Part shown: piece after piece, positions 233-6,946 of the stretch
Layout of the letters: each line of letters opens with the position of its first letter
How positions within the stretch are numbered: position 1 is the first letter of the stretch
From: an uncultured virus (IMG/VR IMGVR_UViG_3300006737_000026)
Lineage: Duplodnaviria > Heunggongvirae > Uroviricota > Caudoviricetes
DNA: 20,000 nucleotides
Reading direction: 5' to 3' (one strand)
IMG/VR virus record: IMGVR_UViG_3300006737_000026
The notes under the pieces: model-generated
Told to the model about the DNA's origin: nothing
The model's database searches: none
The model's input: the letters and a program-made list of their open reading frames with translations, nothing else
Program-made: the position numbers and the translations under genes

Positions 233-240
233 TATAAATA
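233..240 (+). promoter_or_regulatory. T4-type late promoter TATAAATA
   Basis: Exact gp55 consensus, upstream of the riboswitch-like RNA and followed by hairpin TGTGATG-GATT-CATCACA (245-262). Confidence 0.75.
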
Positions 241-266: not shown

Positions 267-486
267 CGTTCATCCCTTCGGGGACGCAAGTAAGTCGCGG
301 AACGGAGCGTTCATCCCATGCTTGAGTTTTTACTCTACACTACACTCACATGTTCTCAGTCTGAGGCACTAGTGTTAAGGATTGAAAAACACCTCAACCT
401 GGACCCTGAGGTTCAGTTAGAGTTAGTTGAGACCGTAAAGGAATCAGCACCCGAGTGTTATTGGGACGCACACGACTGAAGGAACG
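267..486 (+). ncRNA. Glutamine riboswitch-like RNA (glnA / Downstream-peptide family), double-aptamer form
   Basis: CGTTCATCCC-TTCG-GGGACGCAAGTA-AGTCG (267-297), GAACG (300-304), second CGTTCATCCC (308-317) ... GGGACGCACA-CGACT-GAAG-GAACG (463-486). CGUUC/GAACG P1, AGUA/GAA E-loop and a downstream DUF4278-like gene all fit glutamine riboswitches. Confidence 0.75.
318..479 (+). CDS. Small hypothetical protein (53 aa) nested inside the riboswitch-like RNA
   Basis: MLEFLLYTTLTCSQSEALVLRIEKHLNLDPEVQLELVETVKESAPECYWDAHD*; GGAG at 304-307 is a plausible SD; two Cys. Confidence 0.7.
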   Translation: MLEFLLYTTLTCSQSEALVLRIEKHLNLDPEVQLELVETVKESAPECYWDAHD

Positions 487-522
487 GGGGACTGCAAACC
501 CTAACTCTTCAGGAGAAGACTC

Positions 523-690
523 ATGAACACACTTACACAGATCCGTAAGCAAATTCAGAAAGCAGCACGTCTGCACGATGCTCAGATTCATCACACTACA
601 TATCGTGGTGTGGAATATGACACACGTTGTGTAGAGAACAAGGAGACCCACGGGACTTTCTGCTATCGTGGAAAAACTTACACCAAATAA
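523..690 (+). CDS. DUF4278-like small protein (55 aa)
   Basis: MNTLTQIRKQIQKAARLHDAQIHHTTYRGVEYDTRCVENKETHGTFCYRGKTYTK*; two YRGxxY motifs typical of DUF4278; SD AGGAG at 511-515. Confidence 0.8.
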   Translation: MNTLTQIRKQIQKAARLHDAQIHHTTYRGVEYDTRCVENKETHGTFCYRGKTYTK

Positions 691-714: not shown

Positions 715-739
715 AAAGCACCCACATGGGTGCTTTTTT
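715..739 (+). terminator. Intrinsic terminator after the DUF4278-like gene
   Basis: AAAGCACCC-ACAT-GGGTGCTTT followed by a T run. Confidence 0.8.
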
Positions 740-5714: not shown

Positions 5715-5745
5715 CATGAACGAATGAGGGTTTCCTCACTTTCAC

Positions 5746-5850
5746 CCACGCCTCACCAAGACTAAACAGCGTGGTAAAATAATAGTCTTTCATACCTCTG
5801 CTTAGGGTGCAGAGGAATAGTAACTCCACCATTACCCTGATGGTCTTACT
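5746..5850 (+). ncRNA. PhotoRC-II-like structured psbA leader
   Basis: CCACGC/GCGTGG stem with AAGACTA/TAGTCTT pseudoknot; CCTCTGC-TTAGGGT-GCAGAGG and ACCAT-TACCCTG-ATGGT hairpins with complementary loops; directly upstream of psbA. Confidence 0.75.
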
Positions 5851-5863
5851 TATTTCAAATACA

Positions 5864-6946
5864 ATGGCTCAAACTACTCTTACACGCCAACAGGGCGTGT
5901 CTAACTGGGAACAGTTTTGCGAGTGGGTAACCTCAACAAACAACCGCCTCTATGTGGGTTGGTTCGGCGTGTTGATGATCCCAACTCTGCTTGCTGCTAC
6001 CATTTGCTTCATCGTCGCATTCATCGCGGCTCCTCCTGTCGACATCGATGGGATTCGTGAACCAGTTGCTGGTTCTCTCATGTACGGTAACAACATCATT
6101 TCTGGTGCTGTTGTCCCTAGTTCCAACGCAATTGGACTTCACTTCTACCCCATCTGGGAAGCTGCTTCCCTAGATGAATGGTTGTACAACGGTGGTCCAT
6201 ATCAATTGGTAGTCTTCCACTTCCTCATTGGCGTCTTCTGCTATATGGGTCGTGAATGGGAACTGTCCTATCGTCTGGGTATGCGTCCCTGGATCTGCGT
6301 TGCCTACAGCGCACCTGTCGCTGCTGCTTCTGCAGTCTTCCTCGTTTATCCTTTCGGTCAAGGTTCTTTCTCTGATGGCATGCCTCTTGGTATCTCTGGT
6401 ACTTTTAACTATATGCTTGTATTCCAAGCAGAACACAATATCCTTATGCACCCGTTCCATATGCTCGGTGTTGCTGGGGTATTCGGTGGATCTCTTTTCT
6501 CTGCTATGCATGGAAGTCTTGTTACTTCCTCACTCGTCCGCGAGACAACTGAAACAGAGAGTCAGAACTACGGTTATAAGTTCGGACAAGAGGAGGAAAC
6601 CTACAACATCGTTGCTGCACACGGCTACTTCGGTCGTTTGATCTTCCAATACGCTTCATTCAACAACAGCAGAAGTCTTCACTTCTTCCTTGCTGCATGG
6701 CCTGTGATTGGTATCTGGTTTACTGCACTTGGTGTTAGCACCATGGCATTCAACCTGAACGGTTTCAACTTCAACCAGTCCATTCTGGACAACAACGGTC
6801 ACGTTCTCCCCACCTGGGCAGACGTTCTGAACCGTGCTGGTCTGGGTATGGAAGTAATGCATGAGCGTAATGCTCACAACTTCCCACTCGACCTTGCTGC
6901 TGCTGAGAGCACGCCTGTCGCACTCCTGGCACCTAGCATCGGTTGA
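5864..6946 (+). CDS. psbA: Photosystem II reaction centre protein D1
   Basis: [39 protein letters not shown]; uninterrupted; YMGREWE (E130 form); start refined to ATG 5864. Confidence 0.99.

Follow-up and report, generated by a model that had tools for sequence, protein, structure and literature searches.

Two glutamine-I-type cores probably nested on one helix, with a gene in a hairpin loop, in the leader of an apparently IF17-like gene of a cyanophage

Introduction

The RNA element described here lies on the plus strand at positions 267-487 of a 20,000-nucleotide stretch of DNA from an uncultured virus (IMG/VR record IMGVR_UViG_3300006737_000026), which is called the window below and whose source is a T4-like cyanomyovirus. 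It is probable that this region forms one folded sensor, in which two glutamine-I-type cores are nested on a shared helix and a protein gene occupies the loop of P2', a hairpin of the inner core. Helices are named after the glutamine-I crystal structure in PMC6698751, where P1 is the CGUUC/GAACG helix, P2 the stem-loop that comes after CGUUCA and P3 the third helix. 

Relatives of the element

By blastn, 424 phage records match positions 240-540 of the window, and 201 of them cover at least 80% of this span. A pattern scan of IMG/VR, which requires CGCAAGTA and a first hairpin with 2-14 nt between CC and GG, gave at least 120 stretches, and these together with four isolate loci and the window make up the analysed set of 125 records (113 doubles, seven called single, among which L030 is an odd double, and five cut before the 3' end). 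Among the matches listed there are 115 distinct elements in length groups of 45-56 nt, 79-101 nt and 213-321 nt, therefore the insert is optional and both forms are common. The alignment of short forms (A1) holds 34 doubles (35 among the matches listed, L116 being left out) and that of long forms (A2) holds 72 doubles including the window (73 among the matches listed, the 321-nt L087 being left out). Homologues without the insert, a comparison suggested by the original prediction for this DNA, exist in nature: phage Bellamy carries the same double element with the second UCCC/GGGA stem capped by UUCG, and at least 34 metagenomic relatives have a second-stem loop of 4-13 nt in place of the gene.

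Anatomy of the double element

The original prediction rested on repeats and complementary strands, and all of them were found in place. The repeat CGTTCATCCC is present at 267-276 and 308-317 (two copies against 0.07 expected; 1 of 200 shuffles reached two), GGGACGCA at 281-288 and 463-470, and GAACG at 300-304 and 482-486. In the whole window there are three copies of GGGACGCA against 0.27 expected, a number reached by 1 of 200 shuffles, and the third copy, on the minus strand at 6282-6289, is unrelated to the element. AGTCG (293-297) is the reverse complement of CGACT (473-477), and flanks resembling an E-loop are there as described, AAGTA preceding AGTCG and GAAG following CGACT. The stem TCCC/GGGA of copy 1 (273-276/281-284) is capped by TTCG, and in copy 2 the ATG at 318 stands directly after TCCC (314-317). 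It opens an open reading frame (ORF) of 53 amino acids (318-479), whose terminal codons TGG GAC GCA CAC GAC TGA are at the same time 3' strands of the aptamer; its Shine-Dalgarno sequence (SD; GGAG, 304-307) overlaps RNA strands as well, and so do its start and stop. The parts of the element and of the gene behind it are as follows.

267-271, plus strand: outer P1 5' strand CGUUC, partner 482-486
273-284, plus strand: outer P2 hairpin UCCC-UUCG-GGGA, with covarying pairs
285-292, plus strand: CGCAAGUA, pocket strand and E-loop 5' half, invariant in A2
293-297, plus strand: 5' strand AGUCG of the shared helix P3, partner 473-477
299-305, plus strand: GGAACGG, the inner P1' strand 300-304 with flanks G299 and G305
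304-307, plus strand: GGAG, nested-gene SD, within the inner P1' hairpin loop
308-312, plus strand: inner P1' strand CGUUC, partner 300-304
314-318, plus strand: inner P2' 5' strand UCCCA, its last base being the start-codon A, partner 462-466
318-479, plus strand: nested gene, 53 codons and stop, for a two-cysteine helical microprotein (phrog_504)
462-466, plus strand: inner P2' 3' strand UGGGA, within the codons TGG GAC
467-472, plus strand: CGCACA, inner pocket strand (G468, C469) and junction
473-477, plus strand: 3' strand CGACU of the shared helix P3
476-481, plus strand: CUGAAG, end of P3 and E-loop 3' half, with the nested-gene stop UGA at 477-479; alternative partner 507-512
482-487, plus strand: outer P1 3' strand GAACG and G487, invariant in the alignments; AAACG in L157 and L201
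507-515, plus strand: CUUCAG (507-512), complement of 476-481, overlapping the downstream SD AGGAG (511-515)
523-690, plus strand: putatively regulated gene, 55 codons and stop, DUF4278/IF17-like, with two YRG motifs

According to the proposed fold, the outer core is a canonical three-way junction made of P1 (267-271/482-486), P2 (273-284), an E-loop (AAGUA/GAAG) and P3 (293-297/473-477). P3 encloses 175 nt including the second junction and the gene, and is not a local hairpin. In this fold it opens into another three-way junction, the circularly permuted counterpart of the outer core, in which P1' (300-304/308-312) is closed by GAG and joined by P2' (314-318/462-466) with no E-loop, the pocket nucleotides being those of the outer core, namely CGUUC, the G and C of CGCA, and G-GAACG-G. 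The E-loop strands AAGUA (288-292) and GAAG (478-481) are conserved in the outer core and the inner core has neither. G286 and C287 of the outer pocket strand correspond to the triple and linchpin nucleotides, whose roles are described in PMC6698751. Relatives with a single aptamer consist of CGCAAGUA, a local hairpin and GAAGGAACGG, which is the outer core with an ordinary P3.

Covariation of the helices

In the short forms (n=34) 95.2% of cells are paired in the nested structure, while shuffles give 88.4% and slid partners no more than 57.8%. Nine pairs change on both sides there. In the long forms (n=72) the three values are 96.6%, 92.9% and 30-56%, with seven pairs changing on both sides. 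P3 and P2' both span the insert of about 145 nt and both covary, as could be hoped for if the original prediction of long-range pairs was right.

The outer P1 5' strand CGUUC is invariant in 72/72 long and 34/34 short forms, and the helix covaries to CGUUU/AAACG in L157 and L201. The first pair of the outer P2 in the long forms is U:A (57), A:U (14) or G:C (1), and the fourth pair occurs in five standard types (C:G, U:A, G:C, A:U and U:G). For P3, the last pair in the long forms is G:C 64 times, G:U six times and A:U twice; the first pair in the short forms is A:U (29), G:C (3) or G:U (2), and an extension pair seen there is U:A (10), A:U (9) or G:C (3). The first pair of P2' in the long forms is U:A in 69 and C:G in three, later pairs being C:G (53), U:A (9), U:G (7) and other (3), and the start-codon A has U as its partner in 61 of the 72. 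Pair 300:312 of P1' is G:C in 67 long forms, C:G in five and unpaired in none.

The nested gene

From its pattern of substitution, the nested ORF is a real gene. In 69 of the 72 long forms a frame that opens at the ATG next to P2' extends as far as the U of CGACU|RA; the stop at this place reads UGA in 44/72 and UAA in 28/72, and changes of length come in whole codons. The products have 49-66 residues and are 19-66% identical to that of the window, with C12 and C47 invariant. Column entropy is 1.24, 0.78 and 1.42 for the three codon positions, the second being the least and the third the most variable, and the median ratio of non-synonymous to synonymous change (dN/dS) is 0.47 over 1093 pairs with dS 0.05-2, 96% of the pairs lying below 1. 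The protein matches phrog_504 over its full length (residues 1-53 of 53, E 2.8e-26), so that the idea of a whole 53-codon ORF within one stem-loop is upheld by the coding pattern as well as by a protein family. Its model has three short helices with a predicted local distance difference test score (pLDDT) of 81. By tblastn, one full-length copy is found in each of 311 phage records, and in six of six divergent isolates examined it is flanked by the halves of the switch. GGAG stands in the inner hairpin loop in 42/73 long and 0/32 short forms (Fisher p 2e-9, which is overstated because the sequences are related). The protein had no match in Pfam and only unnamed clusters in the Atlas, and its model gave 0 matches at E<=0.001 against the PDB with Foldseek.

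The inner core and the ligand

According to PMC6698751 both glutamine classes make the same contacts with the ligand, namely C1:G, then G2:C overlaid by the G of the CGCA strand, and a long-range C:G pair that ends the helix. All contact nucleotides are found in the inner junction (C308, G309, G468, C469, C303, G304 and G305). In the long forms G299, 301-305, 308-311, A313, C467, G468 and A470 are invariant (72/72) and C469 nearly so (71/72), and in the 34 short forms the matching columns show full or at least 90% conservation. Although the secondary structure leaves G305 in a loop, this base does not vary. In five of the 72 long forms position 300 is C instead of G, each time together with G at 312, and this only varying P1' pair is the one called not highly conserved in PMC6698751; it flips in single aptamers too. 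By analogy with the known class, the element would bind glutamine, and two occupied pockets are thought likelier than one since the inner pocket nucleotides, including the loop G305, are conserved.

Rfam models and predicted folds

At gathering score no Rfam family matched positions 230-540 of the window. With E-value thresholds copy 1 alone matches Glutamine-II (264-311, 26.8 bits, cut-off 33) and Glutamine RF01739 (265-308, 25.8 bits, cut-off 35). Identity with Glutamine-II (RF01704) was rejected: its 26.8 bits (< 33) come with a make-shift hairpin of 3 base pairs, and the covariation is nested and not pseudoknotted, the hallmark of Glutamine-II being a pseudoknot in which a 3' hairpin holds GGAACG in its loop, ahead of its own 3' strand. 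RF01739 aligns the short doubles L016 (43.6 bits) and L011 (41.0 bits) end to end above its cut-off of 35, treating the inner 38-39 nt as an insertion in P3, that is, in the nested register. In this way a model match after deletion of the loop, envisaged for an artificial sequence, is provided by natural insert-less forms. On unit 2 alone the same model gives 35.3 bits in L024 and 34.5 bits in L004. In the minimum-energy fold of 262-530 P2' and the helix that sequesters the downstream SD (the anti-SD helix, see below) are formed and the full aptamer is not; single-sequence folding, as modelled, does not discriminate between the models.

Alternative readings

The two CGUUC and the two GAACG strands are identical in most sequences, therefore either pairing is possible there, and it is improbable, though conceivable, that the region holds two ordinary glutamine aptamers in a row, 267-304 and 308-486, which form separate P1 helices, while AGUCG/CGACU forms a pseudoknot between them or stays unpaired. 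Such a tandem would agree with the interchangeable P1 strands, with Rfam matches to unit 1 alone in the window and to unit 2 alone in L004 and L024, and with the predicted folding of the nascent 5' half as unit 1. The halves appear as separate matches in the 2010 glnA seed alignment (PMC2864571, supplement 5, part 128), and 157 doublets are counted as separate switches in a 2022 review (PMC9481103). The variants speak differently. In five of the 72 long forms the middle strands are CAACG and CGUUG, which pair with each other (C:G), and tandem pairing would leave them unpaired at the end of both helices. A scan for this inner variant gave 21 unique riboswitch loci, with outer strands CGUUC/GAACG in 13, CGUUU/AAACG in two (L157 and L201) and incomplete in six; nested pairing fits 15/15 of the complete loci and tandem pairing 0/15, for both helices would then have C:C, G:G, U:C or G:A as the pair next to the junction. 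L157 and L201 carry a two-sided change of the outer helix that is independent of the inner helix, and in single aptamers a 5' CGUUG co-occurs with a 3' CAACG in P1. A scan for an outer 5' CGTTGA found 26 loci and no doubles among them, mostly single aptamers with a few chance-like matches or cut records. A tandem is also at odds with the E-loop halves, which are divided between unit 1 (AAGUA) and unit 2 (GAAG), with the covariation of P3 between the units, with the register that Rfam favours in L016 and L011, and with the energy of the tandem fold lacking P3, which is predicted to be weaker (-70.9 against -73.5 kcal/mol). Of the two topologies that had originally been offered, the back-to-back one with a circularly permuted core and a shared helix has thus stood, and the tandem with a long-range pseudoknot has fallen with the 15/15 variant loci.

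Even when the fold is nested, it may be asked whether both cores bind. That only the outer core does so, the inner junction being a relic of a duplicated aptamer which caps P3 and frames the gene, is considered rather unlikely. One core suffices, as single aptamers indicate, and the inner junction has no E-loop, its strands being C and CGCA with 2 nt instead of GAAG and CGCAAGUA; the P1' loop has 2-5 nt after G305, which may be tight for the long-range G:C pair. From a relic, however, drift would be expected, yet the inner-core positions are invariant or nearly so in the 72 long forms and at least 90% conserved in the 34 short ones, even the loop base G305 is kept, and the sole P1' pair that varies is the one not highly conserved in PMC6698751, which flips in singles as well. 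It is highly improbable that 318-462 (145 nt) is a structured RNA domain or a spacer with an incidental, untranslated frame. The protein indeed has no known family beyond phage clusters and no structural relatives (0 matches at E<=0.001), but a spacer would hardly keep its frame in 69/72 sequences as divergent as these (19-66% identity) and change in length by whole codons, nor would it be expected to have a least variable second and most variable third codon position, two invariant cysteines, a GGAG only where the ORF is present and a structure model of good confidence.

Several observations weigh against the nested sensor with its gene. The window itself stays below the Rfam gathering score, and a covariance model built from the 34 short forms (R1) gave one match on the window, 264-387, which was rejected for its false 3' half, since such a search is unable to bridge the 145 inserted nucleotides. 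In predicted energy the nested fold (-73.5) lies about 8 kcal/mol above the minimum-energy fold (-81.6), and folds of short segments (262-330, 262-317 and Bellamy 498-590) equal those of shuffles (z -0.13 to -1.09). The third pair of P3 (295:475; columns 39/98 in A1 and 40/304 in A2), U:A in the window, is C:A or A:C in 23/34 short and 25/72 long forms, a conserved mismatch that is unexplained. Outside the variant loci P1 and P1' never vary, and the variants that tell nested from tandem come from few lineages, therefore from few independent events, perhaps one or two. The metagenomic sample was selected, in the matches listed, by a pattern demanding CGCAAGTA and a short first hairpin. As for the gene, 3/72 frames end elsewhere (L045 reads on, L055 and L086 stop at a UAG 15 nt earlier) and its dS is near saturation (median 1.36). 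Finally, the inner core is devoid of the E-loop that turns the chain in glutamine-I, so that binding there may fail.

The downstream gene and the proposed mechanism

The sequence CURAAG (476-481) comprises the end of P3 and part of the E-loop. In 85 of 102 distinct relatives a stretch complementary to it without any mismatch stands 9-11 nt ahead of the downstream ATG, the shuffles giving a mean of 1.9 and a maximum of 7. The variable base pairs of this anti-SD helix are A:U in 34, G:C in 26, G:U in 25 and A:C in 0 cases; the complement overlaps the first bases of the downstream SD, and the helix is present in the predicted minimum-energy fold. The downstream protein scores 22.1 bits against DUF4278 (PF14105; E 0.0002, cut-off 25.3), a family matched by 73 of 79 of its homologues at E<=0.01 (best 1.2e-7). 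It also matches phrog_545 (E 4.8e-33), and its residues Y27, R28, G29, Y48, R49 and G50 are invariant, forming two YRG motifs; a search of PDB sequences gave 0 matches. DUF4278 is the mark of the glutamine synthetase inactivating factor IF17, most glutamine riboswitches in cyanobacteria stand before genes of this type, and the gifB switch activates translation, a helix that occludes the ribosome binding site probably being melted (PMC6212724). From these sequence features, the regulated gene appears to be DUF4278/IF17-like, and the anti-SD helix before it, which covaries, is a competitor of P3 and the E-loop.

By analogy with gifB, glutamine would stabilise the fold and hold CUGAAG (476-481) in P3 and the E-loop, whereby the SD at 511-515 of the DUF4278/IF17-like gene would be freed from pairing at 507-512; the direction of control would be ON. 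The SD and AUG of the nested gene lie in P1'/P2' and its stop lies in the E-loop, therefore the folded sensor should hinder nested initiation. A ribosome translating the nested gene would have to unfold both cores and the anti-SD helix, and on stopping at 477-479 it would cover the anti-SD strand, so exposing the downstream SD regardless of ligand. It can be said that sensing and translation of the nested gene probably compete on one RNA, and three outcomes may be compatible with the sequence: reciprocal control, coupling, or mere tolerance of a passenger gene.

As a tentative and rather doubtful extension, the element might be a switch with two outputs, in which two ligands lock the fold cooperatively and the nested and IF17-like genes are controlled oppositely. 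At low glutamine the leader would be open, ribosomes would load at GGAG/AUG (304-320) and make the two-cysteine protein, ending on the UGA inside the E-loop. At high glutamine the pockets at both ends of the shared helix would be filled, the nested start buried and the start of the IF17-like gene freed, while a translating ribosome would act as a reset of the sensor. If this is true, one 220-nt RNA conveys the nitrogen status to two phage proteins in opposite directions.

Comparison with known systems

Riboswitch aptamers are usually viewed as compact units free of coding sequence, and those in tandem as beads strung one after another; the present reading would place in hundreds of cyanophage genomes a sensor of interlocked cores, one of them permuted, with a hairpin loop that serves as a slot for a gene. 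Leaders of Salmonella mgtA and mgtCBR contain the short ORFs mgtL, mgtM and mgtP. They resemble the element in that an ORF lies inside a sensing leader and its translation changes which helices form, but the mgt ORFs encode short regulatory leader peptides and not conserved proteins, and they are not known to occupy a loop closed by an aptamer helix. In T4-like phages, group I introns have homing endonuclease ORFs looped out of core helices, and there too a conserved RNA core closes around a looped-out gene whose ends reach the core pairings; those RNAs, however, are ribozymes with a homing endonuclease ORF and not ligand sensors. In the glycine riboswitch the aptamers stand in series and dock by tertiary contacts, whereas the element would be nested by a shared Watson-Crick helix and has a gene inside. 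Two homologous aptamers, one amino acid and one platform would nevertheless be common to this element and to the tandem glycine riboswitch, listed as a 'dual aptamer' in PMC9481103 (Table 1).

The closest likeness is to glutamine-I (RF01739), exemplified by the Synechocystis gifB/IF17 leader (PMC6212724): the P1 CGUUC/GAACG, the stem-loop after CGUUCA, the CGCA/CGGA pocket strand, the E-loop and the third helix are shared, as is a position before a DUF4278 gene with expected translational ON control by freeing of the ribosome binding site. Unlike glutamine-I, the third helix of the element ends in a second pocket-bearing junction and not in a loop, a protein gene lies in a hairpin loop, and the window scores under the Rfam cut-off; moreover, marine picocyanobacteria, the host group, reportedly have type 2 and not type 1 (PMC6212724). 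Catalogued tandem glutamine riboswitches (PMC2864571, PMC9481103) likewise have two aptamer-like units per leader. Seed alignment rows of PMC2864571 match each half as separate entries with the P3 strands unpaired (supplement 5, part 128), and the 157 doublets and 4 triplets of PMC9481103 are filed under multiple expression platforms. In these catalogues the units are separate switches, while here they would be interlocked, with one shared helix and one platform. Glutamine riboswitches in T4-like cyanophages are mentioned in passing (PMC9964418, PMC9602691). No publication was found that describes a shared helix, a permuted core or a gene inside an aptamer, within an incomplete coverage of the tandem-riboswitch literature, and the words 'nested' and 'circular' do not occur in the accessible part of PMC9481103; to the same extent, the claim that the nested architecture is undescribed agrees with the literature searches.

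Standard scans find only a fragment or nothing, therefore the switch and its regulon are under-counted in the annotation of phages and metagenomes. The natural forms with and without the gene are a ready-made comparison of how ribosome and ligand compete on one RNA, and they could reveal whether two pockets on one helix sharpen the response. The element would tie the nitrogen status of the host to an IF17-like protein, whose homologues inactivate glutamine synthetase in Synechocystis, and so it bears on the handling of nitrogen by the phage during infection.

Genomic setting and further observations

The closest DNA relatives of the window are Synechococcus phages. The double element is located between a small upstream ORF and talC, which follows directly (ORF 668/776-1432) and is annotated in relatives as transaldolase; in L001 a gene for the ribonucleotide reductase beta subunit lies upstream. 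Other features of the window are given below.

32-208: small upstream ORF, matching phrog_12245 (E 1.6e-22)
233-240, plus strand: TATAAATA, possible promoter element upstream of the leader, kept in L001 and L002
245-262, no strand assigned: palindrome TGTGATGGATTCATCACA, immediately 5' of the aptamer
715-736, plus strand: hairpin with T run resembling an intrinsic terminator, closing the unit
2345-2418: tRNA (75 bits, above Rfam gathering score)
5734-5828: PhotoRC-II RNA (60.3 bits, above Rfam gathering score)

At 233-262 the window thus reads TATAAATA followed by TGTGATGGATTCATCACA, where most relatives read a GTAN8TAC box and TTGACT, with their -10 lying within a palindrome; other palindromes occupy the same place in relatives, around their -10. 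An NtcA-type box GTAN8TAC occurs within 70 nt upstream in 59 of 102 relatives, and none stands upstream of the switch in this window. A sigma-70 promoter scan gave no site at 233-240, where TATAAATA may resemble the T4 late-promoter consensus.

In marine metatranscriptomes, contigs of four runs (four studies, 80% likeness) cover 257-351 and 409-693; they are relatives, because they differ from the window in many places, and no piece spans the element in the four runs, the result being one of presence in RNA libraries only. The 23 RNA runs listed each hold only about 0.03 of the sampled window words.

Other forms of the element were also seen. In L126, L127 and L130 (S-8S55, Syn19 and syn9; bases 1-150) an annotated gene ends directly before GACGCAAGTA; the first hairpin of these phages also contains a gene, and such forms were excluded from the pattern scan by design. 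L087 (oriented 300-630) has three CGTTCA units, the first being an orphan 5' half and the second and third a nested double whose first hairpin contains the gene and whose second is short. In L004 (584-625) an extra module of about 35 nt stands between the aptamer and the SD, consisting of AACGGATCC, a stem, a 4-nt loop, a stem and GAGAAGGTTAA; the same module is found in L015, L050, L055, L071, L095, L114, L127, L130, L157 and L201 and is absent from the window, and its stem, judged by eye, seems to covary. Between P1 and the anti-SD partner the window has a small hairpin GGGG ... CCC (487-501), and since relatives read GGA...UCC or GGG...CCC there, their sequences suggest that this spacer hairpin is a conserved helix.

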